Shown: positions 4,448-63,484 of the stretch, in pieces
Numbering within the stretch: the first letter of the stretch is position 1
How the letters are laid out: each line of letters opens with the position of its first letter
Assembly: GCA_030141605.1 (NCBI GenBank)
Contig: JAQGDQ010000218.1
Coordinates: 248,001-312,000 of the forward strand
Direction: 5' to 3'
DNA length: 64,000 bases
Source of the DNA: Tubiluchus corallicola
Taxonomy: Eukaryota; Animalia; Priapulida
Position numbers and translations under genes: made by a program
Notes under the pieces: model-generated
Database searches by the model: none
Told to the model about the DNA's origin: nothing
Seen by the model: only the letters and a program-made list of their open reading frames with translations

Positions 4448-4460
4448 ATTCCCCCTTTCT
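4448..4460 (-). promoter_or_regulatory. Polypurine tract
   Basis: Minus strand AGAAAGGGGGAAT immediately precedes the 3' LTR TGTA. Confidence 0.85.
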
Positions 4461-10387: not shown

Positions 10388-10429
10388 GACCGGGACACTG
10401 GCCCCATGCCCGGTCTCCTTTAGTTTAAC
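10388..10429 (-). promoter_or_regulatory. Putative -1 ribosomal frameshift signal (G UUA AAC plus stem-loop) joining gag to pol
   Basis: Gag ends CAG TTA AAC TAA. The -1 frame reads open into the pol ATG. Stem GACCGGG...CCCGGTC begins 7 nt after the heptamer. Confidence 0.8.
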
Positions 10430-12185: not shown

Positions 12186-12255
12186 TTTACCAATTTTATT
12201 ACAGCTTGCCGTTCTTACTCAGTTTGAATCACAATGCCTCAAAACAAAATTCAAA

Positions 12256-12273
12256 ATCCCGGACGAGCCCCCA
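12256..12273 (-). promoter_or_regulatory. Primer binding site complementary to tRNA-Pro
   Basis: Minus strand TGGGGGCTCGTCCGGGAT, the classic tRNA-Pro PBS, 3 nt from the 5' LTR. Confidence 0.95.
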
Positions 12274-12276
12274 AAA

Positions 12277-15199: not shown

Positions 15200-30679
<15,480 letters not shown>

Positions 30680-34763: not shown

Positions 34764-37700
34764 TTATGAACCAGTAGATAAAGATTCCAGATACTGTAGT
34801 GCATTCTGCAGGGAAATCAGACAATAGCCTTCTTCGCCCATTAAATACCTGTGAGAAAATCATATTTCATCATTTTGCAATTGAATTTAAACGAATGCGG
34901 GTCATTTTTATTCTGTCTAGACCAGAGCCAGATTTAAGCCAATTAGGCAGATTCGTTCCTGAGCCCTGCGTCAAGGGGGGGGGGGGCACGCATGGTTAAG
35001 CGGAGAACGCTATGGTGAATTAATGATGCTTATGAGTGTCCAGGTTGCACGAAGTTTCTTGATACTGTGAACGCAGTGAAACTATTCAATCTGTCCTCAT
35101 TTAAATTGGGTCCCGCGCCAAGAGGGGGGCACGCATGGTTGAGGAGAGGACGCTATGATGAATTAATGATGTTATGAGTGTCCAGGTTGCTTGAAGTTTC
35201 TTGATACTGTGAACGCAGTGAAACTATTCAATCTGTCCTAGTTTAAATTGGGTCCCGCGCCAAGAGGGGGGCACGCATGGTTGAGGAGAGGACGCTATGA
35301 TGAATTAATGTTATGAGTGTCCAGGTTGCATGAAGTTTCTTGATACTGTGAATGCAGTGAAACTATTCAATCTGTCCTAGTTTAAATTGGGTCCCGCGCC
35401 AAGAGGGGGGCACATATGATTGAGGAGAGGACGCTATGATGAATTAATGACGTTATGAGTGTCCAGGTTGCATGAAATAACACATCACTCTTCAGCCTTT
35501 AGGGCAGAGGGCCCCAATAATTTTCTATTTGGGCCCTGCACTTCCTAGGGCCGGGCCTGGTCTAGACAGTACTTTAATCATTCAACTGTGATTACTGACT
35601 TTAATCATTCAACTCTGATTATTGACAAGTTTTCACAAAATCTTTGCCAGCTTACAAACAAAAAACTAAACAATCGTTACACAATATTTTTGTGAGGGGT
35701 GAGCAGAGAATATTCGAGTTCAATTCGAATGAGTTTTTTGAGTTGAAATTCCATTCGAACCTAAATTGTAGATTCAAATAAGTCAGCAGCACTTCAACTA
35801 AATGTGTTGCTTGCAAACCAAAATCGTCCACGAGTCGGTTACATTATGATGCTTCAAAGTAAAATGCACCAAAAATTTGGTCAAATGTCAATCTTTCATT
35901 TTTTATAAAAACAAATGCTAAATATATTGGACTTTTATATTCTAGCATCAAATTGTCAAGAAAATGTTTAAAAAATACCAAAAATCTAATTATATAACCC
36001 GGTACCCACTTTTCTGGCTAGAAACTAGTACTGAAATTGTAAAACTTGTATTTTCAAACTCAGATAGTAGCTTGTGAAAGCAGTCATTTTGCTTTGGGTT
36101 TTGCCAAGCCCAGATCTTCGTCAGGAAGAGCCATCTACTGCATTTCAACATAACTTCAAAGTGCTCTTGTAAAGTCTGTAGCAACCAACATTTGTGCGGT
36201 TGCTAAGTGCTTTGTAGAAATACAATGGCTGACTTTAACATTGATTTTCTCAAGATTATGTTTTTCAGTGTGCAGCCTGCACCTCAACTTCAATGTGGAT
36301 TATCTCAGCTTAGAAATAACATAGAGTGATGAACTTGGTATTAAAATGATCCTCATGAAATGGAGATTCAGGATGAGTGAATAACTAGAAAAACTTAATT
36401 GCTGACTTATGGATTATTTTGCTATGCAAGTTCACATGATTTTTTCATTAAAACATTTCAAACATCAGCACAATTTAGCTGTGATTTCTGTACACAATTT
36501 TTAAACAAATTATTAGTATTTTTACTGCAGAACAAAATCAAGTACTATGCATGATCTTTGTGAGACAACTTTTTTGCTAGAGATTTCAAAATCTTTGAAA
36601 CTGAATTCGGATTAGAGTTCGAAATCCAGAAATTCAATTCGAGTTGAATTCGCTTTCTGATAGAGAATGCTGCTCAGCCCTAATTTTTACAGTTAACTGA
36701 CACACTAATGAACGTACTCATTCGCTTTCTGATAGAGAATGCTGCTCAGCCCTAATTTTTACAGTTAACTGACACACTAATGAACGTACTCATCGTGAAT
36801 GAAATCCTCTACAGCTTGTAATTCCGCAATTAACAGAGGTAACTCACTGCGCACGATTACGTAACTCAGGATGGGTACAAGATCATCTGCACCACTGTAA
36901 TGGAAAATAAAACAGAAATGAATTAAATCAACGCAGTTTAGGATGGGCACAAGATCATCTGCACCACTGTAATGGAAAATAAAACAGACATGAATTAAAT
37001 CAACGTAGTTTAGAATGGGCATAAGATCGTCTGCAGCACTGTAATGGAAAATAAAACAGAAATGCATTAAATCAACGTAGTTTAGAATGGGCACAAGATC
37101 ACCTGCACCACTGTAATGGAAAATAAAACAGAAATGAATTAAATCAACATAGCTTAGGACTGGCACAAGATCTTCTGCAACACTGTAATGGAAAATAAAA
37201 CAGAAATGAATTAAATCAACATAGCTTAGGATGGGCACAAGATCGTCTGCACCACTGTAATGAAAAATAAAACAGACATGAATTAAATCAACGTAGTTTA
37301 GAATGCGCACAAGATCGTCTGCACCACTGTAATGGAAAATAAAACAGACATGAATTAAATCAACGTAGTTTAGAATGGGCACAAGATCGTCTGCACCACT
37401 GTAATGGAAAATAAAACAGACATGAATTAAATCAACGTAGTTCAGGATGGGCACAGGCTTATCGGCACCAGAGTAATGAGAAATAAAATAGAAAAGAATT
37501 AAATCAACATAGCTTAGGATGGGCACAAGATCGTCTGCACCACTGTAATGAAAAATAAAACAGACATGAATTAAATCAACGCAGTTTAGGATGGGCACAA
37601 GATCGTCTGCACCACTGTAATGGAAAATAAAACAGACATGAATTAAATCAACGTAGTTTAGAATGGGCACAAGATCGTCTGCACCACTGTAATGGAAAAT

Positions 37701-40700
37701 AAAACAGACATGAATTAAATCAACGTAGTTCAGGATGGGCACAGGCTTATCGGCACCAGAGTAATGAGAAATAAAATAGAAAAGAATTAAATCAACATAG
37801 CTTAGGATGGGCACAAGATCGTCTGCACCACTGTAATGAAAAATAAAACAGACATGAATTAAATCAACGCAGTTTAGGATGGGCACAAGATCGTCTGCAC
37901 CACTGTAATGGAAAATAAAACAGACATGAATTAAATCAACGTAGTTTAGAATGGGCACAAGATCGTCTGCACCACTGTAATGGAAAATAAAACAGACATG
38001 AATTAAATCAACGTAGTTCAGGATGGGCACAGGCTTATCGGCACCAGAGTAATGAGAAATAAAATAGAAAAGAATTAAATCAACATAGCTTAGGATGGGC
38101 ACAAGATCGTCTGCACCACTGTAATGGAAAATAAAACAGACACGCATTGCTGTAAGAAACACGCTACGAATGGTACAAAAAGTTAGATACACGATGTTTA
38201 CACTTCATTTGAACTACCTGAACAGCTGAAATTTTTTGGCAATTTTTAACATCTAAGAGGAAAAAAGGTAAGCTGGATAAATACTACTAAAACCTTGAGA
38301 AAATGCTTACAAAATTTTCGGCTATGAAACTTATATTATATACATACACATATATATATATATATATATAATTTTTATTTGCCATTAAAATACATTGATA
38401 ATCACTGATAAAAACTTTACAAAGATGATCAATCAGTGTTAGTTAATAAAAACTTGCACTGCTGAAGGCGAATGCATCAGTGCAATCTAAACTACTGTGC
38501 AGTAATGGAAAGTAACGACGAATAAAATCAAACATATTTACAACTATGCACAAAAAAATGAAAAAATTATGATTTAATTAATACCACCGTGGATGTATAA
38601 ATTCTGAATTAGTGTGTATGTTGTCATGCTGGTGTGATGGTATTTCATATCTGGTTAATATTAGTGATTTTAATTTTGTTTTAAATGCTGATAGGGACTT
38701 GATTTGTTTAACCTGTTAATAATGATTTTCAACGAAAACGAAACTGAACCAAAAGTGCAATTATCGGCAAACGGAAACCAAATTTTCGTATTCGTAACAT
38801 CCCTGCTGACGCCAAAAACAATGATGAAAAATGACGTGTAAAAACACGCAAGACAAAAACAATGTAAAACTGAACTTGCCAAAAACAATGATGAAAAATG
38901 ACATGTAAAAACACGCAAGACAAAAACAATGTAAAACTGAACTTGCCAAAAACAATGATGAAAAATGACGTGTAAAAACACGCAAGACAAAAACAATGTA
39001 AAACTGAACTTGGCAAAAACAATGATGAAAAATGACGTGTAAAAACACGCAAGACAAAAACAATGTAAAACTGAACTTGGCAAAAACACTGATGAAAAAT
39101 GACGTGTAAAAACACGCAAGACAAAAACAATGTAAAACTGAACTTGGCAAAAACAATGATGAAAAATGACGTGTAAAAACACGCAAGACAAAAACAATGT
39201 AAAACTGAACTTGCCAAAAACAATGATGAAAAATGACGTGTAAAAACAAGCAAGACAAAAACAATGTAAAACTGAACTTGCCAAAAACACTGATGAAAAA
39301 TGACGTGTAAAAACATGCAAGACGAAAACAATGTAAAACTGAACTTGTGTTATTAGTAAAACTTACATTGAATTCCCCTGATGCTGTTGTCCTTTTGCAC
39401 TAAAGTACTCATCAACATTCATGCATATAATCTTGCATACTTGTACTGTGAGATACAAAGAAACAAATACAATAGTTTAAAAGTTGTTAATTATGTTATA
39501 AAGACAGACAGAATGCCCATCACGACTGTCTGTCCATCTGTGCATTGCCTGCCTTCGTTTGCAGTGGTCACAATGGCTTTTTAATTTATATAGTTTGGCA
39601 TTTTAACAAAACCAAATTTAGAATATTCACTTGAATTTAAAAGAAAACAAGACCCAATCTTAAACTGTAAGTCAAAATAATCTACTCCTTAAAATATTGA
39701 AAGGAAACGTACTATTTTTTCAAGAATGACTTACGTGAAAGAATTATTGCCACACAAACACAATTTCGCATTCGTGCCACTAGTTCTTCGCTGTTACATG
39801 CATTTCGCCATTCGCTAGTTAGATGGGCACTAGCACCTGAATTTTGGAAATGCATTGCACAAAAAACAAGCGATGTACCTCTCAATTTAGATGTGTTTTG
39901 TCGACTCCCAGTTTAGAGGTGTCTTGTTCACTCTCAATCTAGAGGTGTTAGTTTGTGACGTAGTGCACAGCTTCGACAGCTCTTGCATAAGCACAGCAGT
40001 AAATTATAAACTTGAATTTTTATCTTAAAACTTGTCTAGTTTTAGTTTAACACAATGAATCTCTTACAGTAGCAGTGTACTTCAATTTTCGTTTTCACAA
40101 ACACGTGCAACACAATATTTTTACTGTTGAGATTTATGTTAGTTTGTGATGTCATCAATAATTGGGCTCGCTCCCCGTTATCATTTAATTAACAGAAACG
40201 CTTTTGCAGTATTAATCGTGTTAAAATTATACTTTATATCAGACTTGAAAATGGGGGGGGGGGTGTATGAAAAATCATCCTGTCCTCTTTTAATTACCAC
40301 AGGTGAAAAGTTCACTAATAGACAAAGATTTGTTGTCAGAATTTTAGAAATACTTACCAATGATTTCTAATTTGCTGAGAGGACAAATACAATTGATAAG
40401 CTTTCTCAGTTCAAAGATGGCAGCACTGTACGGTATCTCCTCACTATCTAATAAACTCAACTTCTTCTTCACGGTTAGGTGATAAGGCAATGCACCTTGG
40501 TACAGCGTCATGGTTTTTGCCAAATTTATTTCCCTCGATTTGTAGACCAACCTGTGCAAGAAAATAGTTAGTAACTTTTATTTCAACTCAAAAGATTTAG
40601 TGTCTACTCACTAATAGCTACTGCAGTTATTTGCAGGAGCGTATCAAGACTCCCTAGGCTGATACTTCTGTCCTGCCAATCTTTATTGCAAATTTATGGT

Positions 40701-43700
40701 TGCTTATATAATAAGCAATTTAAACAATTACTTGTGGTGTATTAGAAATATTATTAAACTAGTTTCTATGTGGTTATTATTAATTACATGTATTTGCACA
40801 GCGCTTACATTCAAGCAAGCTGCGAAGCTTGTTGTGTAATACCTTAGACCTGTTCATTATGTGGTACTTATAGAAAAGCTGGATGCAGTAACTGCTTGTG
40901 GTGTGTTACAAAATGTGCCCTTTACATGAATATAAAAGTATACACATCTCTATTGTGAATTTATATGGTTATTTATATAATAAGCAAATTAAACAATTAC
41001 TTGTGGTGCATTAGAAATATTATTAAACTAGTTTCTACGTGGTTATTATTAATTACATGTATTTGCATAGCACTTATATTCAAGCAGGCTGCGATGCCTA
41101 TTGTGAATTTATGGTTGTTTGCTATAGTAATTTCACATGACTGCAAATAATGCAATTACAAGTTTCACTGTTGTGCCTGATTAACTTGCTGGCTATTGAG
41201 AAATTCACTTTTCACACAATATTCATTAATTTTATTACAATGAGAATCTGCGGGTAAAAACAACCAGCGGATCTATTATTAAGAGGGGTTCTTATTGTAA
41301 CGATCAATGCACCAATGCTGGTTAAATCATGTAAATTAAACATTTTATTCATAATTCTACTATTAATTTCTTTCTCTTTGTTTGAAACATCTATCTTTCT
41401 TACCAATGTCTGGCTAGACTTGCTAGCGATCTCTCCTCTGCCAAGCTCTGCATGGAGCGACCTTGAGACAATTTCATGTAGTATTGATGTGGTTGCTATA
41501 GCAACAGGTTAGAGACAAAATTACTTGGCATAAAGTTTAAACGCCGCTGTCACTTGATGCAAACGGCTAGAATTTAGTACATGGTCAGTCGGGAAGCAAA
41601 AACATTATAATAATTGCACTGTTTACGTTACTAATACATTTTTAGAACAAAATAAAGCAATATGTACCATTTTAATGCTTCAAATTTGCGAAAAAAAAGT
41701 TGTTGATAAAATAAAAATGGCCGTGAGCAAGGTAAAAAATTCGTCGTTAAACGAAACTGTGCGTCATTAAGTGAGGAAAAGGTGTCAACTAATAGTACTA
41801 CTTTCACATCGTGAGCAAGGTAAAAAATTCGTCGTTAAACGAAACTGTGCGTCATTAAGTGAGGAAAAGGTGTCAACTAATAGTACTACTTTCACATCGT
41901 GAGCAAGGTAAAAAATTCGTCGTTAAACGAAACTGTGCGTCATTAAGTGAGGAAAAGATGTCAACTAATAGTAGTACTTTCACATTTTTGCTTCAAGATC
42001 ATTTTTGGGTTTTGTGCGTTTTCTGTAAATTTAAGTAAATGAAGTATTTTCATGGTGTACCGGCTGATTTTCCTGAAGCAGTTATTTTATTTAACTATTG
42101 AACTAAACTAAATGATTAAGTTGAACATTTTACAAATAATCAGGTGAGTATTAACCAAATAGGCTAATCAAAATCAAAATGTGTATACTTTTATATTCAT
42201 GTAAAGAGCACATTTTGTAACACACCACAGGCAGTTACTGACCGCAGCTCTTATATAAGTACCAGATAACGAACAGGTGTAAGGTATTACACAACAAGCA
42301 TCGCAGCCTGCTTGAATATAAGTGCTATGCAAATACATGTAATTAATAATAACCATGTAAAAACTAGTTTAATACTGTTTCTAATACACCACAAGTAATT
42401 GTTGACTTTGCTTATTATATAAACAGCCATAAATTCACAATAGAGATGTGTATACTTTATACTCCCTCTCCCTCTCTCTCTTGCCGCACGCGCGCCGTTT
42501 GCCAGTATTGACAAGTATTAAGGACTGGTCTTGAGAATAAAGCAGTTTTTCTTTCAATTGTTCTTTTCTTTAACAACTGTATAACTCCATATTTTCTCTT
42601 CGACCGGCATTCTAGCAGTTCAAAAATTTTCAGGGCGCCCCGAGGGGGCCTTACACGCCCGACTTCCCCGGGCCTCGCTTAGACTGAAATAGGCCCTGAT
42701 AATCGTAAATAAAAATGTGCAACGCCGCACACTTGACAAATACAATTATCCGAGATCTCTGTCTAAATTAAAACACGAACCTGATTACCTGAACAACGGT
42801 AACAAATACGGCCACAGTCTCTCCAGAAAAGGTTGTTCTATTGAAGCGTGTACTTGATCGCGACCAATCGGTGTATCTAACTGCTCATACGCTAAAATAA
42901 ACAATTCATACAAGCGATCCATGTAGAGTCGAACGTCATTAATGATATTCTTTGAATGTCGCATCAAAGCTTCTTCTTCCAGGGAGCAGAGACCGTGACG
43001 CGTATCCTGGAAACGAAAATAAATGTAATTCGCACCAGCAAAGCTTGATCCTTCTACAGTAAGTCCTCGCTTAACGACGCTAATGCGTTCCAGCAAAACA
43101 CGGCGTTAAGTGAAACGTCGTTAAACGAAACTGTGCGTCATTAAGTGAGGAAAAGGTGTCAACTGTTCAGAGTGGTTAAGCGTCCCGGGACTTCACTGTA
43201 TGTATAATAAAAATAATTAACAGTTCAAACTAATTTTAATGTTAATAATTAAATTAACAGTAGCTAAGTACACAGAAGAAAGCTATTATAACAGCTAATG
43301 TCCATAAATGTCTGTACTTTCCGTTCATAAGTTTTTTTGTATATTTGTTAGCCTACAATACTTACTTTTTAAAAATTATTCAAAATTTTTTTAAAATTTT
43401 CTTAATTTTTTTTGATACATTTGCTAAGTTTAAGTGATACGTTTAGGTAAAAACACAACATACTGAGTGACTTGTTCTTTCCTTTAAATTTCGTACCTTG
43501 ACCTCCTCACTGCTGGGTGATTCCTCAGCTGCCGTATCACCTGTAAGTTGCCTGACTAGCCTACTGCCTTTCTCTAAAGCCTTTTCCGCATCATCTATAG
43601 ATGAAGCTACCGCATCTGCAAGATCACTACCGTCATCACCGGTCCCAGCATCACCAGGCACATGCAAATGATCACCAGACTCTAGTAGCTCCGTGTTTTG

Positions 43701-46700: not shown

Positions 46701-49700
46701 GTACTTCTTTTACTGTCATGACTGTACATTGTACTTCTTTTACTGTCGTGACTGTACATTGTACTTCTTTTACTGTCATGACTGGACATTGTACTTCTTT
46801 TACTGTCGTGACTGTACATTGTACTTCTTTTACTGTCATGACTGGACATTGTACTTCTTTTACTGTCGTGACTGTACATTGTACTTCTTTTACTGTCATG
46901 ACTGTACATTGTACTTCTTTTACTGTCATGACTGTACATTGTACTTCTTTTACTGTCATGACTGTACATTGTACTTCTTTTACTGTCGTGACTGTACATT
47001 GTACTTCTTTTACTGTCATGACTGGACATTGTACTTCTTTTACTGTCATGACTGGACATTGGACTTATGTGGACAAATGAGTAAAGAAATCAGAAGTCAA
47101 TATGTGAGTTTAAACTTTTAGTATCAGTTACCTACATAGATAAATACTCTAAGCTCATCATCTTACCTGACTATGAGCTTTATAAGATGGTCTATAAACA
47201 CCGTATCTTGCTGACTCTCTTTTAACCTTGCCCTCCAATCGAGAAGCCACGCCTGTAAGAGAAACCACACCTGTAAGAGAAGCCACGCCTGTAAGAGAAG
47301 CCACGCCTGTAAGAGAAACCACACCTGTAAGAGAAGCCACACCTGTAAGAGAAGCCACACCTGTAAGAGAAGCCACACCTGTAAGAGAAACCACGCCTGT
47401 AAGAGAAACCACACCTGTAAGAGAAGCCACACCTGTAAGAGAAGCCACACCTGTAAGAGAAGCCACGCCTGTAAGAGAAACCACACCTGTAAGAGAAGCC
47501 ACACCCGTAAGAGAAGCCACGCCTGTAAGAGAAACCACGAATTCTGTAGCAAGTACCTCATTCAAACCATTTTAAAACATTTTTCATCTTTTATAGTTAA
47601 AACATCACAACTTTATTAAAACTTTTACTTTAACGTAGTTAAAAATCATATCAAACATTTCGACAGAGCTACCGCTATCATCATCAATAGTACATTTTTA
47701 CAAACATACAACCTGTTTACATAGGCAGAAGTTACAGTATAAAACATTATGCACTAATTATCTATTTAAGAGAAGCAAAATAGGTCATGAATTACAGACC
47801 AAAAGAAAAGAAATTGATACAATAAATTATGCATAATGCATGCTTTTGTAAGTACATAATTAGTGCATAATCTACTGTATCAATTTCTTTTTTTCAGGTC
47901 TACTTAATCACTATCTATTTGTCTTTTGTAAATACATAATTAGTGCATAATCTACTGTATCAATTTCTTTTCTACTGGTCTGCTTAATCATTACCTATTT
48001 GACTTCTGATAATACATAATGTTCTATACTGTAGGTTCTGCCTTTGTAAACTGGTTGTATGTTTGTAAGATTTACTATTGATGATGACAGCGGTAGTTCT
48101 CCTTAAACGCTTGACATGATTTTTTTAACTATGTAAATTAAAAGTTTAAATAAACGTGAAGTGCTTAACTAGACATATCCAAATATATTAACAACCAACC
48201 TGATCTTGTTCATACTCTAATATAGCTAAATAGATTTGCTTCTTCTCATCTTCTTGCCTAGTACCAGTACCGCCACCAAATTTCCTAAAAGACCAAGAAC
48301 CTATTACAAAAATGTGCAAACAATACAGAATTACAGAAATTGTTGCGCTTTGTTTCTCTCGTACGGCTCGTAGAGAAACCCAGAAAACACTTCATCAAAT
48401 TAAACTAGTTTATTAAGCGAGAATTCTACAACATAAAAGTATGAAGGAACACGAAATGATTACAGTAAACGTGAAAATCTGGAAAACGTTTAAGTGTATC
48501 TGAAATTGCAAGTATACAAGAGAATGTGTAAGTGACGTCTCTGTGAATCTGTGTGTGTCAGCGGCTTGCTTCACCTTATATAGGGTGCCAGGGAACATTC
48601 TAGACGTTTCCTTCTAGAACATTCTACAAGGTAAGACGATTGTTCTAATGGAACATTCTACAATGTTCTATTTAATTCTAATAGATGCCAGCGATCTCCA
48701 CAATAGAAATTTAGTTTTTACATATAATCACAGTCTGAAAGTACCAGTACCACCACCAAACAATACAGAACTAGAGAAATTTAGTTTGTACATATAATCA
48801 CATGTAATAATATATATAATCACATATAATCACAGTTTGAAATCACCTTGCAGCAGCATCTTTGAGCTTTTCTCTTCTTTCTTCTCGTTTTCTTAATAGT
48901 TCCTCGTGTTTACTCTTAGCAATGGCTACATTTTCTAGCAGCCTTCGTTGTAATGAAACACCCTGTAGAATGAAATTGCAAACCAATTTTAAAATTATTT
49001 AGCGGGTCCCCACTCGCTACCTTCAACCTCTCCCAGAGGGGACCGGGTCCCCACTCGCTACCTTCAACCTCTCCCAGAGGGGACCGGGTCCCCACTCGCT
49101 ATCTTCAACATCTCCTTGTTTAACTGAATACCAGCCAAACTTAATGGAAAACACCTAATTGACTCAAAAATGTCTGGAACGGGGCACTCCTATTCAAATG
49201 TACATAAAAACCATCGGTAATTGACTCACATAACTGTGCACAATTGACTCAAATAACACCGAGTAATTGACTCAATATTTTCTCTTGGCGTACTTAAAAT
49301 AAGACACTTGTGTGTGACCAAAGAACTTTTACTGCTTTCATGTCATTTTTACATTGATGTTGTGCACTATAATATACGTAGAAACAGTCATGTTAAGTAC
49401 AGCTTTGTTTGTAAGCAGGTACAGTATCACAAGTACTAATATGTTAGCTTAGCAGTTTTGCTTTGAATCTGTCACCCACTTGTCCACTGCAATTAACCTC
49501 GTTGTTTCTGGAAGCTAAACATTTAATCACTTGACCAGCGGTTTGCTTTTGAAGTTCCTGCTGCTTTTCACAGGGGAAACAAGGTCATCACCAACTGCAG
49601 CTCAAGCACTAGGTGACTACGTGTTTTGAGTGAATATGTACAGTATACAGTAACAGATTTTCAAAGAAATGTTGCAGACCAAAATCAATGCATCTTTAAT

Positions 49701-51858: not shown

Positions 51859-54800
51859 CTTTATTATTACGACTACGGCAAAATCACGTTGAAAACACCG
51901 GTTCTCGTCTGATTACCGAAGATAAGCAACATATAGCCCGGTTAGTACTCGGATGGGTGACCACCTAGGAATACCAGGTGCTGTAGGCTTGCGGGATGCC
52001 CACACTGTATCTCGACACTAGGCGGAGGAGCTGCACAAGCAGCCAACGGCTAGAGGGCGGAGGAGGTCAAGTGACCCAACGGCCATGTGTAGAGGAGTAA
52101 ACCTTCAAAATCAGGAGTGGAGCTCCGAAGGCGGACCAGTGCAGCATGCTCACTGACTCCGGCAGTTCCTGCAGCCAACCTGGTGCCAAACGTATCGTTC
52201 CGCTTTCTTTGGACTACACCAGCGAGGAAGAGAGGGGGTTCCTGTTGTCTGGGCAACTCAGGATCTCCATACACCTTGCCCAGGCATGTGCCCTGGAGAG
52301 GCCATTCCAGTGGTTCAAGGATCGGACTGCTCAGCCACAGTCGACGCTGCAGCTCCAGCAATGTGATCAATAACTGACTCTCTTGGCGCACACTCCATTG
52401 TCTTCCAAGACAGAAGGATGCCAACCAATAATAATCTTTATTTAAAGTCGGCTTTTGGGTCAAAGAGCTATTATCGCCGACTGTAAATAACAACCTACAA
52501 CTACATAACAGAGACTATTATTACCGCTTGGTTCCCAACCTGGTGTACTAGTACCCCTAGTCTGTCGAAAACTGAACAGCGATTCAAAAAGTAACTAGTA
52601 CCCCCTGGAAGTACTACTGAACACCACAAGGCGTGCACGAGAAGCCTCTTAGACAAAATTAAAAAATTAGCGGGTGATTCAGACAACTGAAGCGCCGCCT
52701 GGAAACAACATCAGTAACCGAATTTTGGTGCAGTCCGCAGATACGCGAGGCCTATCTGGTTCCATACGTCCACCCAACTACGACGTTTGTGATTGGCTAC
52801 CTGTGAAGCAGGCTGTTCAAAGATGGTGACAATGAAGACAAAAGCCCGAAACCGTGTTGACATCCGCAGAGATATGAGAGTCAGTCTGTGGAAAACTGAA
52901 CCGCGATTCATAAAGTTAGTTTCTGCTATGCAACAGCAGCCAACTCATTGGGCTTTCATTTACTGAGCTTGATCATTTATGTTCACAAATAAAAACAACC
53001 ACTGGTACATTTTAACTAACTGCACCGTTATGTTAACAACAAGCGTTCATTTATTACACCCTGAGAGCCTGAACACACGAACTGTGAGTCGCAAAAGTCA
53101 GTGTTGCCCCCCCCCCACACACACAAGGCATTTGGTTGAGTTTTTATCTGTCAGTTGTATATAAGACTGCTTAATTACCCTAATTGCACACGTTAACAAT
53201 GAGTCAGCCTAAGTAGTACCACACTGAGTACTATTAATGCGGCGTAGGTATTAGGAAAATAAAATAATCTATAATATCCTTTTTGTATTCTGTTAAACTT
53301 AACTATCTGTTAATTCGTTTCTTGGAAATAGTGGCCTAAAATAGGTTTTTAAAAGTTAATAAACAGTTAAATTTGAATAATTAACCTCTTTGTAAAGAAA
53401 TCATAGTTCTTTTGGAAGTCACCCCTACAGCAAAAATGGTTTAGTCTTCCATTCCTACTAGTTCTTAACCTGGCACGGTGCCAGCAGTTGACCTGGCACG
53501 ATGCCAGCAGTTGACCTGGCACGGTGCCAGCAGTTGACCTGGCACGGTGCCAGCAGTTGATAGTCAGTTAATTGAACTACACAACAGAGTGGCATTCAAA
53601 TTTTAAATTCTCTAACAATGGATATCGCATTACAAATGTCTGCATTTTCATTATCGGAGCCAGGTAGAAACATTAAGCTCGGGCAATTAACAATGCGGGT
53701 AATTTCTCAGGTACCCGGGAACACTAATGCTTACCTAGGACTAGCTGGCATTAATGACAAACTTCTAGACTCAGCAGAAACTGGAGAAGATTGGGATGAT
53801 GAGTGCGGAGTGGATGCTGCAGGTAAACTATGATAATTGGTAGAAACGTGTAATTTTGACTGAGACGAGTCGTCTGCAGTTACTGCAAGACTGGAAGGTT
53901 TCTGAATAACTGTATCTTTATCACCGCCTGAAAAATACAAAGTTAGGAATGAATGAACAATCAAAAAGTGGCCCGGAAAAGGGATGATTATTATAAATAA
54001 AATTAAATCATTTGTTTATAATCCTTGAAAAATTGTTTGGTAAAAGAAATGATTTGAATTAACTTCACTGTGATTTCCAGAAACGATCAAATACGGTCGG
54101 AACCGCAGATCTAGGTGCGTCCTCAGAGAGAGATTGTTAGGCCTGCGTAAAAAGTGAGGAAAACAATGGGCGTCATGTTCTAATACAAATTCTATGCTCT
54201 GCTGTTGGGCAAACAATGGGCGTCATGTTCTAATACAAATTCTATGCTCTGCCATTGGGCAAACAATGGGCACCATGTTCTAATACAATTTCTATGCTCT
54301 GATGTTGGGCAAACAATGGGCGCCATGTTCTAACACAAATTCTATGCTCTGCTGTTTGGCAAACAATGGGCACCATGTTCTAATACAAATTCTATGCTCT
54401 GCTGTTGGGCAAACAATGGGCGTCATGTTCTAACACAAATTCTATGCTCTGCTCTGCTGTTGTGCAAACAATGGGCACCATGTTCTAACACAAATTCTAT
54501 GCTCTGCTGTTGGGCAAACAATGGGCACCATGTTCTAACACAAATTCTATGCTCTGCTGTTGGGCAAACAATGGGCACCATGTTCTAACACAAATTCTAT
54601 GCTCTGCTCTGCTGTTGGGCAAACAATGGGCATCATGTTCTAACACAAATTCTATGCTCTGCAGTTGGGCAAACCATGGCCATGTTGCTGGACCAAATAG
54701 CATTTGATTGTTACGCAAAAGCTGCCCTCGAGCGACACAGTTTTGAAACATTGTTTTATACGCAAGCTAGCAATCTCTCTACACACTTCATCTAAATCTA

Positions 54801-57800
54801 CGGTCAAAACAAAATTTTTTACTATTTTTCCTCAAGATTATTCTATGCAAATGAACTACTGAAGAGATAATGTTTAATATAATCACCATTTTCCTTCAAA
54901 ATCTCTTGTGTCCGTTCAACGCACTGCAAGCAAAGCTTAAAGAACTTGTCGTCAGCTCCACCTAGTAGTAAAAATGTTTAATATAATCACCATTTTCCTT
55001 TAAAATCTCTTGAGTCCGTTCAACACACTGCAAGCAAAGCTTAAAGAACTTGCCGTCAGCTCCACCTAGTAGTAAAAATGTACACTGATATGTTTGTTAG
55101 GTATGAAATAAGGGGTTTTTACTTAAGCCTGTGTGTTTGCCGATTAAAGGTATGTGGTGATACTTTGTTAAATAGTCAAACACACAACACAAATCGCAAA
55201 TCGCATTTAGCCCCGCCCAACTTGAAGATGTAACACACATTCTCACAAACTCCCCCCGATACAAGTGCTTACAACACATTAACAAACTGAAAAGATGGAA
55301 AAAATTGGTACTAGTAAGTTTGCCAAAGGTAAATTTGGTCTAGCAATTTTGGTAAGAGGAATTTTTGGTGCAGCAAAATTTTAGCACAGCACCCGGAAAA
55401 TTGGATACAGAGAAAATCTTCTACTGGAAAAACTTAATACAGTACTGGCAAGCTTTTGTCACGCATTTTTAGTACAAGGAAATCTGGTTCAAGGTAATAG
55501 GAATTTTCACAGTTTCATTGCGCAGTTGCTGTAGGTCAAAGGTTAAGTGTGCCACAGCAACGAGCCTTAACTACAACTGTCACGTGACGTGTAGGTAAAG
55601 CAAAGCTGTCTGTCGCATCAGCTCAGTAGCTTCAGTTGTTTTACATAGACTTTACCTAATTATGCATTAGTCTGTGCATAGAGTGATTTACTAGCAGGAT
55701 TTTGCTCGGGAACAAAAAAATGAACTAGGTAACTGTTAAAACTGTAAGTATTACAATGACTTGGGCTACAAGGGGTTATCAATTGTAGACAAATGTGTTA
55801 TCTAGTACACTTAACCTTTGGTCTTTTCACGATCATCATCATTCGCTGGATCTGCAAGACTTATTACAGAGGATCAGAGAATTCTCTATAACAATGTATA
55901 AACTGCTCCAAATCTCGATGTTGCCTCCAGAAATACAGCACTCGTGTACGGCATCATTGAAACAGTGATAATAATGTTAGTTAGACAGTAAAATTGGTGC
56001 AATGATGATAAAAACAATTTTTCACACCGATACAATAAGGGAATATTCATCACAACGACATGACATTATCACTAGTGTGGTAGTTGGAATTGTACATTGT
56101 AGTCAGGTGCTGCCATCTATGTGCTAATCTTGTTACATTCTACAAGCTGACTTACCTTCAGTCTAATTGCATGGTCCAGTGACTACATACACACTGGTCC
56201 TCTCCCTATCAAAAATTAATGGTTGTTGTGAAGCCTGTGCAACTCTGCATAGTTCAAGTTCTACACCTGTATACTGGCTGTGAAACAGGTTTTACTGACT
56301 GTTTTTGCTTTTCTAGTTTTTGCTCAATGTTCAGTGCAGCAGTTTTCTGTAGTTCAATAAACACTTTTCTGTTGTGTGCAGTGCAAATATTTATTATAGA
56401 TTTTTGGTTCCTATTCACACTTCTCTGTGTCTAAACTCATTCATAACTAAGTGACTGAACAACAACTTCAAAAATGACTTTCACAACTAACATCCTTACA
56501 AGCCAGTGAACTTAACTTAATGTACATTTATCTAAGATTAATACAAACCTTTACTCCTTGCATCTGCCAGAAGATGTTGTATTACATACGTCACGCATTG
56601 TAAATAGGTTACGGAAGCTGCCTAGATAAGAGAATTAGAAAATATTTCAGAAAGTACCACTTTCTTAGTATAATTCTAATCACAAGAAATACAAATACCA
56701 AAACACAATGAACCAATACAAAATACAAATTATAATAATAATAATAAGAAGAATTTTTTTATTTATCTTGCAACACACGCAGAGTTATAATGCAGTAAGG
56801 ATAACAAAGTTTGGTGTCATTTATAATTATAGTGGTTCTTAGTAATTGTATCACGTATTACTCGAAATTTCAAGGTCAGGGCATTTTTACAAGCTTGGTT
56901 TCTTACAATACAAATCATTTAGGTGGGTAGTTAATAATTTTTTTTCAAAATTTTCTTATTACATATCTTGCAGTTTGCCACCTCTTGAATTATTGAAAAC
57001 TTTTTGCTTATTTTAATGTATTAATTTTTTATTTGTGTTGATGTGAAATAAACAATCTATATATATATATATAATAATCTTTATTTGCCATTAAAAACAT
57101 TGATAATCACTGATAAAAACTTTACAGAGATAATCAATCAGTGTTAGTTAATAAAAACTTACACTGCTGAAGGCAAATGCGTCAGTGCAATCTAAACTAC
57201 TGTGCAGTAATGACGAATAAAATCAAACATATTTACAACTATACACAAAAAAATATAAAAAAAACTATGATTTAATTAATATGGCCGTGGGTATATGAAT
57301 TCTGAATTAGTGTGTATGTTGTCGTACTGGTGTGATGGTATTTCATATCTGGTTAATATTGGTGATTTTAATTTTGTTTTAAATGCTGATAGGGACTTGA
57401 TTTGTTTAACCTGTAATGGTAGAGAATTCCAAAGTAGAATTGCTTGTTTGATTACAGAGTTCGTTCCATAGTGGGTATTTGTCCTAATTTGTTTTAGATT
57501 GCTTGTTCTGGAATTAACGATAGGATTTGGAAAAAGGTAAATCTGTTATTCTGGAATGGTTTGCTGATGTTGTTAATGTATTTAAATATAAAAAGCAGAG
57601 TAAAATATTCTTTGTGTGCTTCAATGATTGGGAATTTTAATGTTTTTCTCAGGTTAGTTGTTGAAGCTTTGAATTTTTGTCTACCTGCCTTGTGTTTGTA
57701 TGAGTACCCAGCTATCAATCTCAATGCATAGTTTTGAAGGAGATTTAATTTTAAGTAATTTTCTCTTTTGGTTTTTTGAAGTAGCGTACATCCATATAAG

Positions 57801-60800
57801 AAGTGTGGTAGAACTAAAGTTTTATATATTAGTGTTTTAGTTTCCTTTGTTAGTTGCCCTTTAACTTGTCGGAGATATGATGTGCTAGATGCCATTTTTG
57901 TGTATATGTTATTAAAGTGATCACCCCATGAAAGATTATTGTCTACCTGTATGCCCAGGAATTTAACATTGTTAGTTTGTTTGATTACAGCATTATCTAT
58001 TGTCAAAGTGGTTGATGATGCATCATTAGTATTTAATGAGGGTGACAGTATCATGAATTCTGTTTTGTCATTATTCATTTTTAGCTTGTAATGACTAAAT
58101 GCCATATTTATATTTTTTATATCTTCTTCTAAATAATTTTTTGCAGTTTGGACATTTTCATGGGCTATGTAGATTGTAGTGTCATCAGTGTATTGCGTTA
58201 TTTGTGAGTGTTTTAATACACTGGATATGTTGTTTATATATAGGCAAAATAATAACGGACCTAGTAGTGTTCCTTGCGGTATACCTCTGTTTAACGTGGC
58301 CCAGTCAGAAAAGTTGGTTGTATCTAACTTTACTCGTTGTTGTCTATCTTTGAGATAATTTTGTATCAGTTTTAACGATATCGAATCTAATCCTATTTGT
58401 TTTAAATTATCGTAAAGTAGTTCGTGATTAATGCTATCGAAAGCTTTACTTAAATCCAAAAATGCTGCTAAAATGTATTGCTTGTTGTCTAAACTATGTC
58501 TCCAATTTTCTGTTGTGTGTATTAGGGCGTCAATGGTTGAATGGTGTTTACGGAAGCCAAACTGATGTTTTGATAAAAGTTCATGTTTATTTACATATGA
58601 ATTTATCTGATCATAAATTACCCTTTCCCAAACTTTGCCGAAACAATGGATTACAGAAATTGGGCGATAATTCATGGGATCACATTTTGGATCTTTTTTA
58701 TGGATTGGAGTCACGTTTGCCATTTTACATACCGTTGGAAATTCGCCTCTCATAATTATCTGATTAGCAATGTAAGTCATATGCGGGGCTATTACAGATG
58801 CGCTATCTTTTAGAATTTTGATAGGAATATCTGATGGTCCACTCCCTTTGTTGGAACTTAGGTTATTTAATATGTCGTTAATTTCTCCTACTGTGACGCT
58901 TTTGAATGAGAATACTGTGTTAGACGATTTGTTTTTTAATTTATTAATTATATTATTGTTAATATGAGAAGCCACTCCCTTAAAATTTCCAAGATTCAGG
59001 AATATTGCATTTAGCGCATTGGCAATATCTTTGGGTTTTGTAATAACAGTGTTGTTGATCTTAATTTCGTCAACACGCGTTAGTTTGTTACGGCATTTAT
59101 TTATTACATTGTTAATAATTTTCCATTTTTCTTTGGTATTTGTTGCGTTTTTACATTGTTGTTGTATATGTTTATTTTTCAAGCATTTATTAAGATTATT
59201 AAATTGATTTCTCTTTTTTTATAATTGTTATGATTGTTTTTAGTTTTGTTCTTTTCCCATATATTATACATTCTGTTTTTCGCTATTCTTAGTTTGTCAA
59301 GTTCAGGTGTTGTCCAGGTACTTTCGTTATTGAGTTTGCTTTGTTGTGGGATTTGCTTTACGTTTTTATATGGTGCATGTACATTAAGGCAATATTCGAC
59401 ATTATATGTCAGAATATTAACTTGTGTATCTATTTTATCAGTCATATATATGGAGGTCCAGTTCATTTTTGCTAAGTCGATTAAGTATGAATGTTTGTTG
59501 TATTGGGCGTAGTCTCTCATTAAATGCCAGACTGAATTTTGGTTATTATTATGCTGTGGGGTCATTTTATCTACTAATATTATGAAATGATGATCTGAAT
59601 AATCACACGGGAAAGTATCATATGCTACGAAATTATTGTTACTATTCGAAATGAAATGGTCGATTACTGTGGCTGATGTTTTAGAAATTCGAGTAGGTTT
59701 ATTGTTGTTAAGTATGTGGACATTATATTGTTTTAAAAGCTCTGTGTATGTTTTGTATGCCAGTGTGTTTGTAGCTAAAATATCAAGGTTGAAATCGCCC
59801 ATTATAAGTACTTTTTTATTTTCGAAAACACTGCGTTCTAGTTCTTCACTAAAGTATTTGAAAAATGTTTTGTGTTTGAGATTGGGTGGTCTATATATGG
59901 TTCCTATTACATAGTTCTCAATGCTGCACCAAACAGATTCAATTTTGCCAGTTCTGATGCCTTTCATTTCTTGTGGTCTCAGGTGTGAAGGTATATACAT
60001 CGCAACCCCTCCACCTTTCTTATTTTTACATCTATCTCTTCTTATTAATGTGTGATTAGGTAATTCTATAGTGTTGCTAAGTATTTGTTTATGTAGCCAA
60101 GTTTCTGTTATGCCTACAATCAGATTTTCGGTGGCGTGAATTGTATCTTTCAGCAGCCAGTGTTTTTTGACGAGACTTTGAATATTTATATTTAGAAATT
60201 TGATGTTCTTTTTATAAGTAATCATGAATTTTTTTAGCTTATCACTGGTATTATTATTGTTGGTGTTATTATTATTATTATTTGGCAAAATGGGTCCAGG
60301 GTTAGTTTCGATACCACCAAGTATAAGTAGTAAACGAATTATGGTTAAAATGTAAGCCAGTTCAGAACATGAGTATAGAGTGCTTTCAAATTTAGATGAA
60401 ATCTGTAATTTTTCCAATTTTTTTAGAGCTACGTATTTTAGATTGACATGACGCATTTGTCTTATAGCACTGAGGTACACAACTTTTAAGATGGATACAA
60501 ATCTTTTTAAAATAAATTGCATAGAGTGTCTTATTCTATCGCTATTTACAGGAAAAGCAATGAAAAAGTTGTTTAAATTACCTTTAGTCATTACATTACA
60601 AATTACTGTTACGTAGATCATTTTCAGTTTTAGTATGGAGAGTAATGTACGTAGTATAACTAAGACGTAAGCATAGTTACAATAAAAGAACTTAACTGTT
60701 TGATATTTGGCGTTAAATATACAAAGGCTCCCATGATCACAAATAAATTTGGTAATTTTATGATAAGATACGTTAGAAATATCAACTATGATACAAGAAG

Positions 60801-63484
60801 TAAATTCGTATGGTTTCCAAAATGTACCTATTAACACAAATAAAATAACTTTAACTTGCAGTTTTTTTGCAGTAATACAGCAGCATAGTATCAAGCTTAC
60901 ACAGTAAAACGTTACACATGCGTGGTAAATTAATTTTAGAACGATCATAAGGATACTAATATCGATTGTGAGTAAAAGGGCTTGTATAGAATACAGTACT
61001 ATAAGAAGTAAATATTTCCTATTATGTAATAACGTGGGTGAGATAATTGTTATTATAATACTAGTATACACAATTGTTACGTTATAATCTTTACACGAGT
61101 TAGGATGGATTGGCCTATTTTGCCATATTATGTAAAAATTCACTAGCAGCAGTGCTAAAAATTTTCTGTTATTCAGTGTCATCATTAAAATCATAATAGA
61201 ATAGTAAAAAAAGGAGTTTTATAACAGGTTTACGCAGACTAGCTTTAAAGTTCAGAGTAATGTCTAAAACCAAGCTAAACGATACTAGGCCTATATGAAC
61301 TTGGAGATAAGCTCTTTAAAGGCTTTGGTTAGTATGTTTTCAATCTCGGATTTTACAACTGGTTCCTGAGTTAACAGCAGCGGTTCATTTTGGCTTGGCA
61401 GTGTTGTAGAACATTTATTAGGATAATGAGCTTTAGCCGATTCTGTGTAGTACAAACTGCTTCGTTCAGATGGCTCTCTCCGGTTCGAAACGGAGTAGGC
61501 TCGCTGTGGGTCGTTAATTACTGGCGTTGGGAGAAGACCAGGTTTCTTAACTGCGTCTGAATAGCTGGTATTGTGAGATGAACCAATACGTAAATTAAAC
61601 GAGTTATTTAGGCGCGAAATTGCAGAATTGTGTTGGTATGGGTTTGTATGGGACATTGGCTTGCGTCTTGTTTTCACGTACCAACGCTTAGGATCATTGT
61701 GTAAACATAAGTTCAGTCGTTCTGCTAATTTTGATACACCAGCACGACTTAAATGTAAACCGTCTCTTGCCATTAACCCTTCAGCTAAAAAATGACTTTG
61801 AATGTTGCACAATAAATAGCCCTCTTTGTTAGCTAAATAGACTAGATCATCATTGAAAGAGCGTATAAGCTCGTTTGTCAGAAAGATATTACATGGTTTT
61901 GCATTAAAATGCTTACTTTTTGAAGTCAGCGGTATATTACAAATAAAAATGTTTGCAGCTTTAAACTTACTTGCAATGTTTTTTGCACAGTTGTCTGCAA
62001 TTGTAATGATGTCTCTAACTGATGATTCTTTGTCGATTTGCTGTCCAACCTCGTCGCATTTTTGCGCTAGCCGTCTTATGTCATTTACACCACAAGCGAT
62101 GATCACATTTTCAAGCTTCATAGCTGGATAATGGTTTAACACTTTTGTGCTTAACTCTTCTAATGTTAAGCCTCTGTATGAGTGTACCTGGACGTTTTGC
62201 CCGATGTCCTTTGGATTTAAGTATACGGTCCGTGAGTCTCCCAGGACTAGCGTTTGAGTGGTTGCATGTATGGTCTTATGATTTTTCCTTCTTTGATTCA
62301 CAGTTATTGTGGCATTGCAAGTTTCCTTTTCCTGCAAGGTTTCGCCCTGCGATGGAAGGTCATTATTGCCGTGTTTCGATGAGGAGGTGTCTCCATTCAC
62401 AAGCAAAGTTTGACTTGCTTCATCTGTGTGACTGGGATCTTTGGAGGAATTATCACTTGTTTGGTTGCTTACATTTCGTTTTCTTTTTTGTAGTTCAGAG
62501 AGTTCCGTTGATAATTTATGAACCTTTTCGATGAGAGTTGACTGCTCTTTATAGCTGGCAGCTAGTTTTGACTCCAAGCATTGAATTGTCTTTTTACTCT
62601 CTTTTTCCTCATTTTTGGTTTTTATTTGTAAGGCAATTAGCATTTGTTTATATCGTTCGCCCTCTGGATCACCAACAAGTACGAAGTCGGGAAACACAAT
62701 TTCTGCCGCCTCGTGTCCATCATTTCCCATATTCGTCGTTTGCCTATGTTTTTTGAAGCACCTTTCGCACGTTGCAAGAAATAGCTGATTTTTATTTATT
62801 GGATTTTTTGCACTTTTGCAAAGCGTGCAACTTTTCCTTGCCATTCATGTATGTCTTTTAACATATACTTTGTTCGACGTAGTATCTTTTAACTATAAGT
62901 AAATTTGTACAGCCTTGGCCTCACGGCCTAATCACAATCTATTCAACACTAACTGGTATAATTAGCAACCGGAGCACGAGACAAACGATGTGCACCGGAC
63001 AACTGACAACTGACCATCTTGACTCTTAAATCTTGAAAATCGTACATAAGTTTTTTCCCTCTTTAGAATTTTTCAGCAAGCTCACAAAATGTCTTCCAGA
63101 AGCTCCGTTATTGGGGATCAATTTCTCCGGAAGTGTTTAATAGGGTTGATAAAACAATAAACTCCTGACAAAGTTTTTCACCCGGCCAAAACTTGTAGAG
63201 TAATCTGAATATATTAGCTCAAAGTTCATAGTTCTCTAATATCGAATTTGACAATTCATAAATATGATATTATATTGTTTGTATTTTTCCCTGCAAGTTT
63301 ATGTAAAAAAAAGCTCCCTTGAAACTCTGTAATCCAGCCGTACTTAGTTTCCAATAATTCAGACCCGCAAATGTGTAGACGTTACCTGGTGTTTTCCATG
63401 CTCATCCATGCGGATTCCTTCCGCGGCGATTTGTTTCGCTCTGACGAAGATCGCATCCGTGACTGTCTGTTTGCTCATTATCAT
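34764..63484 (-). CDS. VPS9D1: VPS9 domain-containing protein 1-like (N-terminal MIT-like helices, coiled coil, VPS9 GEF domain); 14 coding exons, exon 3 duplicated
   Basis: GT-AG exons in transcript order with consistent phases: 63484-63386, 56621-56549, 55065-54991 (or copy 54961-54887), 53927-53735, 51640-51532, 48962-48847, 48284-48200, 47252-47167, 43959-43497 (alternative donor 43464), 43006-42789, 40551-40358, 39445-39367, 36894-36790, 34848-34764. Peptides: [86 protein letters not shown]. Start could be 63478. Confidence 0.92.
34975..35477. repeat. ~142-bp tandem repeat, about 3.5 copies, in the last VPS9D1 intron
   Basis: Repeated gggggcacgcatggttgaggagaggacgctatg... Confidence 0.85.
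35694..36682. mobile_element. hAT-like non-autonomous element
   Basis: Imperfect TIR gaggggtgagcag / ctgctcagcccta; TTCGAA subterminal motifs; partial TSD atttttgt/atttttac. Confidence 0.65.
36858..38145 (-). repeat. 72-bp minisatellite of intron end, acceptor and first ~12 codons of VPS9D1 exon 13 (18 units including the real exon)
   Basis: Unit ...ctgttttattttccattacag|tggtgcagacgatcttgtgcccatcct...; frame stays open (ORF 36777-38192). Confidence 0.95.
38351..38715 (-). mobile_element. 5'-truncated copy of the LINE at 57071-63010
   Basis: Near-identical to 57078-57413; next to (TA)n; interrupts a repeat seen intact at about 24200-24390. Confidence 0.9.
38812..39347. repeat. 67-bp minisatellite x8, beginning about 20 nt into the intron after VPS9D1 exon 12
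   Basis: Unit caatgatgaaaaatgacgtgtaaaaacacgcaagacaaaaacaatgtaaaactgaacttg.caaaaa. Confidence 0.9.
40683..41115. mobile_element. ~270-bp dispersed repeat, 1.5 tandem copies; inverted copy at about 42175-42460 and another at about 34468-34700
   Basis: Shared caattacttgtggtgtattagaaa...gtgttacaaaatgtgccc sequence. Confidence 0.8.
41723..41985. repeat. 88-bp tandem repeat x3 derived from a MITE internal segment
   Basis: Unit contains cgtcgttaaacgaaactgtgcgtcattaagtgaggaaaaggtgtcaact, also at 43116-43164. Confidence 0.9.
44205..45295. repeat. 42-bp minisatellite
   Basis: About 25 copies of atgtattcaccgtatttactacataaattcactatattacta. Confidence 0.95.
45443..47062. repeat. 30-bp minisatellite (about 54 copies)
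   Basis: Unit gtacttcttttactgtcatgactgtacatt; highly homogeneous. Confidence 0.97.
47241..47538 (-). repeat. 18-bp minisatellite made of the VPS9D1 exon 8 splice acceptor (16 units)
   Basis: Sense-strand unit ttctcttacag|gcgtggc; the last unit runs into the exon [13 protein letters not shown]. Confidence 0.95.
49004..49112. repeat. 41-bp tandem repeat about 40 nt upstream of the VPS9D1 exon 6 acceptor
   Basis: gggtccccactcgctaccttcaacctctcccagaggggacc, about 2.6 copies. Confidence 0.85.
51802..51858. repeat. (AAT)n microsatellite
   Basis: Direct observation. Confidence 0.95.
51871..51990 (+). rRNA. 5S rRNA: 5S rRNA-derived sequence (pseudogene or SINE head)
   Basis: 120 nt following the metazoan 5S consensus with several substitutions: gactacggc...ccggttctcgtc.gat.accgaag..aagcaac...ggttagtact.ggatgggtgacc.cct.ggaatacc.ggtgctgtaggctt. 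No oligo-T terminator. Confidence 0.9.
51871..52427 (+). mobile_element. Putative 5S rRNA-headed SINE (SINE3-like) with GC-rich body
   Basis: 5S head runs into a ~435-bp GC-rich body; flanked on both sides by aataataatctttatt (candidate TSD). Confidence 0.7.
53468..53560. repeat. 23-bp tandem repeat x4 with internal palindrome
   Basis: Unit acctggcacggtgccagcagttg. Confidence 0.9.
54161..54688. repeat. 50-bp minisatellite (about 10 copies, some 55 bp)
   Basis: Unit aaacaatgggcaccatgttctaacacaaattctatgctctgctgttgggc. Confidence 0.9.
54869..55081 (-). repeat. 104-bp tandem duplication containing the whole VPS9D1 exon 3 with both splice sites
   Basis: Exon copies at 54991-55065 and 54887-54961 separated by 29 nt. 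Confidence 0.92.
57276..59182 (-). CDS. LINE ORF2 reverse transcriptase part (frameshifts at about 59217 and 57533)
   Basis: [42 protein letters not shown] shifted frame continues ...[10 protein letters not shown]...FKTKLK to a stop at 57276. Confidence 0.93.
59179..61194 (-). CDS. LINE ORF2 N-terminal part: 300-aa hydrophobic leader, 2A-like motif, APE endonuclease
   Basis: [14 protein letters not shown] at residues 288-301, then [41 protein letters not shown]. Confidence 0.9.
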   Translation of the reverse strand: MILMMTLNNRKFLALLLVNFYIIWQNRPIHPNSCKDYNVTIVYTSIIITIISPTLLHNRKYLLLIVLYSIQALLLTIDISILMIVLKLIYHACVTFYCVSLILCCCITAKKLQVKVILFVLIGTFWKPYEFTSCIIVDISNVSYHKITKFICDHGSLCIFNAKYQTVKFFYCNYAYVLVILRTLLSILKLKMIYVTVICNVMTKGNLNNFFIAFPVNSDRIRHSMQFILKRFVSILKVVYLSAIRQMRHVNLKYVALKKLEKLQISSKFESTLYSCSELAYILTIIRLLLILGGIETNPGPILPNNNNNNTNNNNTSDKLKKFMITYKKNIKFLNINIQSLVKKHWLLKDTIHATENLIVGITETWLHKQILSNTIELPNHTLIRRDRCKNKKGGGVAMYIPSHLRPQEMKGIRTGKIESVWCSIENYVIGTIYRPPNLKHKTFFKYFSEELERSVFENKKVLIMGDFNLDILATNTLAYKTYTELLKQYNVHILNNNKPTRISKTSATVIDHFISNSNNNFVAYDTFPCDYSDHHFIILVDKMTPQHNNNQNSVWHLMRDYAQYNKHSYLIDLAKMNWTSIYMTDKIDTQVNILTYNVEYCLNVHAPYKNVKQIPQQSKLNNESTWTTPELDKLRIAKNRMYNIWEKNKTKNNHNNYKKREINLIILINA
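61291..62844 (-). CDS. LINE ORF1p: N-terminal Cys pairs, coiled coil, SGNH/GDSL esterase-like domain
   Basis: CTLC...CERC; heptad-rich segment; VLGDSR, RGLT, CGVND and RDGLHL blocks. Confidence 0.88.
   Translation of the reverse strand: MARKSCTLCKSAKNPINKNQLFLATCERCFKKHRQTTNMGNDGHEAAEIVFPDFVLVGDPEGERYKQMLIALQIKTKNEEKESKKTIQCLESKLAASYKEQSTLIEKVHKLSTELSELQKRKRNVSNQTSDNSSKDPSHTDEASQTLLVNGDTSSSKHGNNDLPSQGETLQEKETCNATITVNQRRKNHKTIHATTQTLVLGDSRTVYLNPKDIGQNVQVHSYRGLTLEELSTKVLNHYPAMKLENVIIACGVNDIRRLAQKCDEVGQQIDKESSVRDIITIADNCAKNIASKFKAANIFICNIPLTSKSKHFNAKPCNIFLTNELIRSFNDDLVYLANKEGYLLCNIQSHFLAEGLMARDGLHLSRAGVSKLAERLNLCLHNDPKRWYVKTRRKPMSHTNPYQHNSAISRLNNSFNLRIGSSHNTSYSDAVKKPGLLPTPVINDPQRAYSVSNRREPSERSSLYYTESAKAHYPNKCSTTLPSQNEPLLLTQEPVVKSEIENILTKAFKELISKFI

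Follow-up and report, generated by a model that had tools for sequence, protein, structure and literature searches.

A 72-bp minisatellite of about 18 units lies across the boundary between intron 12 and exon 13 of VPS9D1, a gene for a protein with a VPS9 domain, in a 64,000-nucleotide stretch of the priapulid Tubiluchus corallicola (contig JAQGDQ010000218.1, positions 248,001 to 312,000; hereafter, the window, numbered from its first base). The unit spans the boundary, the array has grown by single-unit and four-unit steps, and the changes among its copies show no synonymous bias. We hold with good confidence that the array is a mirage minisatellite (i.e., a tandem duplication of an intron end together with the adjoining exon start) with drifting copies, and that the spliceosome probably uses mainly the last acceptor, so that the normal protein is made. 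This acceptor choice is likely, and is deduced from the gene rather than from transcripts of the species. That the array covers a catalytic motif and lies in frame is due to chance.

Tandem Repeats Finder (TRF) called the array at 36868-38142 (period 72 bp, 17.7 copies, 89% matches, 0% indels) with a second, higher-order period of 288 bp, and a script located 18 units at exact 72-bp spacing on the minus strand, with the first exon-like base at 38118, 38046, and so on to 36894, the true acceptor. The existence of such an array is far beyond chance. The exon frame contains no stop in 407 codons and remains open into the true exon 13, and the other five frames contain 18–53 stops. The acceptor AG is kept in 15 of the 18 units and replaced by TC in units 2, 6, and 10, all of which read GADKP; the 23-mer around it is letter-identical in ten of the 18 (the true acceptor and nine decoys). 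Units 2–5, 6–9, and 10–13 form the higher-order blocks (differences: 0, 3, and 3 out of 288 bases), and blocks 1 and 2 are identical across 288 bp. The array holds 11 distinct unit types with up to 21 of 72 bases different; the true terminal unit differs at 6–13 of 72 bases from each of nine others examined, and unit 1 has only ~30 nt of the 37-nt intron part in common with the other units. The variants VAED, GAGD, and AADD are found in units 14, 15, and 16, respectively, and use of a donor-like site in unit 15 would shift the frame. A first-pass annotation of the same DNA had reported 18 in-frame units, a stop-free run into exon 13, a four-unit repeat present about three times, three GADKP units with TC for AG, and these three variants, all of which were recovered. 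It had also counted about 15 competing in-frame acceptors, which holds for frame and identity, the number now being 14 decoys plus the true acceptor.

The host gene is VPS9D1, based on its VPS9 domain, an invariant Asp, and its clade with a VPS9D1-like protein, and it normally encodes an unremarkable family member. Every intron is GT-AG, and with the acceptor at 36894 as the only one used the reading frame is full-length, unbroken, and free of stops; intron 12 measures 2472 nt up to this last acceptor and intron 13 about 1.94 kb. Using exon 10 as the query, three proteins were found: P0001 (Logan-assembled, 671 aa; 93% identity), a Priapulus caudatus VPS9D1-like protein (78% identity), and a fragment. 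The VPS9D1 protein and P0001 share identical residues at 553 of 676 aligned positions (92% over the C-terminal 235 aa), and in a tree built without P0003 and P0004 the two group with the Priapulus protein in a 100/100 clade, which points to a likely priapulid host. A Pfam search matched the VPS9 domain (PF02204), and the AlphaFold model of P0001 (mean predicted local distance difference test [pLDDT] 79) matches the folds of Rabex-5 (2ot3) and AtVps9a (2efc). D613, the first Asp in GADD, does not vary across 36 aligned proteins. The gene identity, the numbering of exon 13, the donor at 39367, and the placing of the family-invariant Asp in GADD, all proposed in the first-pass annotation, are borne out, the exon number and the donor by the 14-exon model. 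The host protein shares the Pfam domain, the fold, and D613 with the VPS9-domain guanine nucleotide exchange factors (GEFs) Rabex-5 and AtVps9a, and no examined member has the repeat. We take D613 to be the probable equivalent of the Rabex aspartate finger, from the motif and from an alignment to AtVps9a that is weak (E 0.38). In Rabex, D313 is the residue given that name (PMC3919270). In the AlphaFold model of P0001, the exon 12/13 junction is at the end of a loop (601-611), directly followed by a helix (612-626); in the 37 homologues, the loop before the helix is 15–25 aa long.

Mirages have been described as duplications in tandem of an intron's 3' end and an exon's 5' portion, in units of 10-160 bp, of which many, not all, keep the AG or GT; the middle is under concerted evolution, the length is unstable, and splicing is apparently unaffected (PMC3087553). 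They have likewise been described for amphioxus Adh, troponin C, and PGBD5 (PMC3902484). The array in VPS9D1 is of the same make, with a boundary-spanning unit of fitting length, partial retention of the AG, and a concerted middle with less homogenised edges. As in the amphioxus cases (Adh3, troponin C, the globins BflGb6 and BflGb9, and PGBD5), the intron 3' end and exon 5' start are duplicated in tandem, the AG is retained in many units but lost from others (here kept in 15 of 18), a homogenised middle is flanked by more divergent edges, and both 5' and 3' boundaries are affected; the 72-bp unit is within both the Adh3 range (10-72 bp) and the 10-160 bp range. The host differs, being likely a priapulid (Ecdysozoa) instead of a cephalochordate, as does the scale (18 copies with a four-unit higher-order block here; 3-6 copies in BflGb6), and the array here is wholly in frame and stop-free over a catalytic motif. 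Decoy silence and length polymorphism were shown in amphioxus, whereas the array here is known from the sequence of one haplotype. Other scanned genomes had no stretch resembling the array region. A literature search whose coverage excluded most subscription journals returned no report of priapulid mirages or of VPS9D1 tandem-repeat splicing, and a search on priapulid tandem repeats returned nothing on priapulids. Mirages are likely new for this phylum.

The array may have been founded by a local duplication joined at the TAC-G/T edge and expanded by slippage or unequal exchange, in a genome that would often produce such duplications. Boundary-spanning duplications can survive because one complete exon always remains. 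Given the long introns on either side (~2.5 and ~1.9 kb), exon 13 would be recognised across its length. Between long introns the splice sites closest across the exon are favoured (PMC9225289), and for this reason the last acceptor is expected to dominate. It lies 105 nt from the exon 13 donor, and the other units follow at 177, 249, 321 nt, and so on up to 1329 nt. A short exon of 105 nt beside the donor would come from the last acceptor only; with the nearest decoys the exon would measure 177, 249, or 321 nt, and these decoys may see low-level use. Otherwise, the copies would be removed together with the intron, leaving the normal protein.

Two human cases are comparable. In CBS 844ins68 (c.844_845ins68), 52 nt of intron and 16 nt of exon are duplicated at the intron 7/exon 8 boundary, and the distal site is favoured (PMC2630376, PMC7490669). 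As in VPS9D1, a 3' splice site is duplicated, and the site that is favoured (in VPS9D1, probably) is the distal, exon-complete one; unlike it, CBS has two copies instead of 18, the length of 68 nt cannot be divided by three, and site choice was studied experimentally. In F7, a 37-bp variable number tandem repeat in intron 7 contains identical pseudo-donors that are functional yet silent (PMC1557585). This is also a multi-copy boundary minisatellite with identical pseudo-sites in which the exon-adjacent site wins, although on the donor side; its explanation by 5'-to-3' scanning is inapplicable to VPS9D1, where the last acceptor rather than the first is the true site. The first-pass annotation had argued that something must suppress the decoys if only the last acceptor is used, but no special suppressor is needed, as silent arrays of duplicated splice sites are already described.

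Several points weigh against predominant use of the last acceptor. The human preference for upstream 3' splice sites is described as only 'significantly reduced' between long introns, and is not stated to be reversed (PMC9225289). The ten identical 23-mers score alike, so local sequence cannot favour the last copy, and VPS9D1 exons reach 463 nt, so size does not bar the five nearest decoys. P0001 comes from a different, related organism, which may be array-free. Furthermore, periods that are multiples of three (hereafter, 3n periods) were found in four of five boundary-only arrays versus six of 26 others (Fisher p=0.027), or in three of four without the focal array (p=0.069). The 26 comparison arrays were listed by hand from TRF, omitting arrays in the retrotransposon or coding exons, microsatellites, the whole-exon duplication, second copies of long terminal repeats (LTRs), and a handful of short matches that were nested or had two copies. 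No other sign of occasional decoy use was seen, and this 3n excess is a weak, post hoc one. No RNA set was listed as covering 36700-40600. One run, guessed to be RNA (share 0.00), gave only dispersed-repeat pieces on 39350-41700 and not exons 11/12, and no joints on VPS4 (20370-29100), where the eight listed of 33 pieces were short; both are uninformative on splicing.

The first-pass annotation had proposed that splice choice inserts 0-17 copies of an active-site peptide, i.e., that regulated acceptor choice tunes GEF activity. This is highly improbable. The stop-free frame, zero indels, and 15 intact acceptors are in its favour, as is the helix-strand repeat seen in the top AlphaFold model, run from a single sequence of four units and exon 13. 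However, the unit copies evolve like non-coding DNA, and a coding reading is without support. We scored 17 copies against the majority unit, counting each derived allele as one event and including the observed transition bias in the expectation. Seven of 26 distinct derived alleles were synonymous (25.5% expected, P=0.51), and six of 18 in the exon-derived part alone (27.8% expected, P=0.38), although with 26 alleles this test would miss weak selection. The synonymous bias that the annotation had raised as a check is absent. The stop-free frame is unremarkable because the probability of zero stops from 26 changes is 0.55, and because eight of 13 VPS9D1 acceptors are stop-free for 12 upstream codons (six of 11 without the two arrayed acceptors). 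We rejected the lack of indels as a mark of frame selection since indel-free intronic arrays are common in the window (30x54, 42x19.6, and 67x8, each with 0% indels in TRF). Six of 17 copies carry changes at family-invariant residues, namely D613 (units 14 and 15), L615 (units 2, 6, and 10), and P617 (unit 12). A repeat at the exon 12/13 site is absent from all 37 homologues, including P0001, which carries a single GADD. Only 15 insert sizes are available, since three units have no AG. The AGT>TCT change in these units, which the annotation had described as still encoding Ser, was rejected as a mark of selection. It happened once and was then carried into three units by the higher-order repeat; one in nine double changes at this place gives Ser, and between the AG>TC unit and the true one 13 of 72 bases are different, with many amino-acid changes. 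The structural model is of low confidence (pLDDT 55.7, predicted template modelling score [pTM] 0.42; three of five models near pLDDT 30), a fold too weak for use. Pfam matches of the array frame to Cas1_AcylT and DUF4144 were below cut-offs, with zero passing stretches, and were discarded. A reading of the unit as a 34-nt mini-exon and a 38-nt mini-intron was also rejected, because the GT is weak and the frame is shifted.

A milder alternative is that splicing is leaky but tolerated, with units 17, 16, and 15 used measurably, 24–72 residues added to the loop before the catalytic helix, and the array persisting thanks to its chance in-frame state, with selection sorting mirages by frame. Since the junction lies in the loop of variable length, the final GADD would keep its position; each of the two VPS9D1 acceptor arrays (the second is at exon 8) is 3n and stop-free, the decoys are identical to the true acceptor in the 23-mer, and the 3n excess at boundaries points the same way. 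Against this, that statistic is post hoc, is based on five arrays, and is not significant without the focal array, and one 3n donor copy runs into a stop at once. The full insert (408 residues) is hydrophobic (grand average of hydropathy 0.9 versus -0.45 for the VPS9D1 protein), and one unit would roughly double the loop. At exon 8, the spacing is almost fixed among homologues, making inserts unlikely to be benign. We consider leaky use unlikely. Its stronger form, in which 3n acceptor arrays survive preferentially, the nearest decoys insert one or a few hydrophobic units of 24 residues before the aspartate finger, and copy number sets the share of normal GEF, is more doubtful still; if true, it would be the first mirage shown to reach protein. 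Finally, the array or its copy number could come from mis-assembly, which we find very hard to credit: with all 288 bp the same in blocks 1 and 2, the block count could be wrong, but 11 unit types up to 21 of 72 bases apart cannot be assembler-made, leaving at most the copy number in doubt.

The mirage with mainly last-acceptor use remains our preferred reading. Taken by itself, the locus is no more than a usual by-product of a genome rich in minisatellites, and its interest lies in offering a natural test of how 3' splice sites are chosen, i.e., exon definition versus first-AG scanning, with 14 upstream decoys, nine of which share the 23-mer of the true site. All decoys are in frame; therefore, nonsense-mediated decay would not be expected to hide their use.

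Table 1. Coordinates of VPS9D1, its boundary arrays, and the VPS4 donor arrays in the window
Feature	Position	Strand	Remark
VPS9D1, 14 coding exons, 657 aa	34764-63478	minus	tblastn with homologues, boundaries corrected
Exon 14, last coding exon	34764-34848	minus
Exon 13, 105 nt	36790-36894	minus	starts GADDLVP with the family-invariant Asp
Exon 12, 79 nt	39367-39445	minus	phase-2 donor (last base 39367)
Acceptor-spanning minisatellite, 72 bp x ~18 units	36859-38142	minus	per unit, 37 nt intron end + 35 nt exon start
Higher-order block (4 units, 288 bp) x3	37219-38083	minus	units 2-13
AG-less units 2, 6, 10	38046, 37758, 37470	minus
14 decoy AG acceptors	38118-72n	minus
Donor-like CAG/GTGATC in unit 15	37097-37105	minus	created by D>G change
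Perfect 72-bp x2 duplication of exon 13 donor	36648-36793	minus	read-through: stop after 3 codons
Second acceptor mirage, 18 bp x16.6, exon 8	47241-47538	minus	in frame, stop-free, 14 decoy AGs
104-bp x2 duplication, whole 75-nt exon 3 twice	54869-55081	minus	copies 29 nt apart
VPS4 donor mirage, four GG/GTAAGT copies	21119-21202	plus	spacing 19, 21, 19
VPS4 donor mirage, 75-bp duplicate	23442-23582	plus	in frame, stop-free

Tandem arrays comprise 25% of the VPS9D1 gene and 17% of the window, and five further boundary duplications were found, three in VPS9D1 and two in the neighbouring VPS4. Whether arrays are enriched at splice sites turns on the choice of null. Four of 21 VPS9D1 arrays span a splice site: placement by final length predicts 3.8 (P=0.55), whereas placement of founding units predicts 0.76 (P=0.007; three of 20 without the focal array, P=0.03-0.04). 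In the exon 8 array, units are of xWLLLQ type, and nine read CAG/GTGTGG, an acceptor plus a donor-like site of proto-splice type. In the AGGT proto-splice model, introns are gained by tandem genomic duplication when the unit contains an acceptor and a usable donor. This origin was rejected for the exon 13 array, in which the junction is AG/TG, the unit-edge GT scores -1.2 to -4.5 on a position weight matrix (PWM), and only unit 15 contains a strong donor-like site; the acceptor and donor PWMs are rough, being built from only 11 and 13 sites. On the same rough scale, the duplicated exon 13 donor is the weakest VPS9D1 donor. The two copies of exon 3 each have both splice sites and differ at one codon (D/G); because read-through hits a stop, they would be usable only one at a time. 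A partial copy of the start of exon 7, without the AG, lies 480 nt upstream of that exon (48740-48760, minus strand).

VPS4 (~15200-29000, plus strand) has MIT, AAA, and Vps4_C domains, and contains the two donor mirages. Two minisatellites of 15 and 33 bp (17283-17450 and 20139-20364, plus strand) end 10-25 nt before VPS4 acceptors without spanning them, and the open frame of the 15-bp one is continuous with the exon.

The window also contains an LTR retrotransposon (~3150-13800, minus strand) with a 1403-codon pol frame (6221-10432) that matches reverse transcriptase (RT), RNase H, and integrase; its LTRs hold a 17-bp minisatellite, and its interior has 338-bp and 63-bp tandem duplications. 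A LINE-like (long interspersed nuclear element) element in VPS9D1 intron 1 (~57060-62850, minus strand) has three long frames of endonuclease/RT character, as judged by eye, and near 60290-60320 the sequence GIETNPGP, which we take to be a 2A-like motif. The 3' 370 bp of this element recurs as a 91% copy in intron 12 (38351-38716). A full-length 5S rRNA match (91 bits) lies in VPS9D1 intron 4 (51871-51989, plus strand), antisense to the gene.

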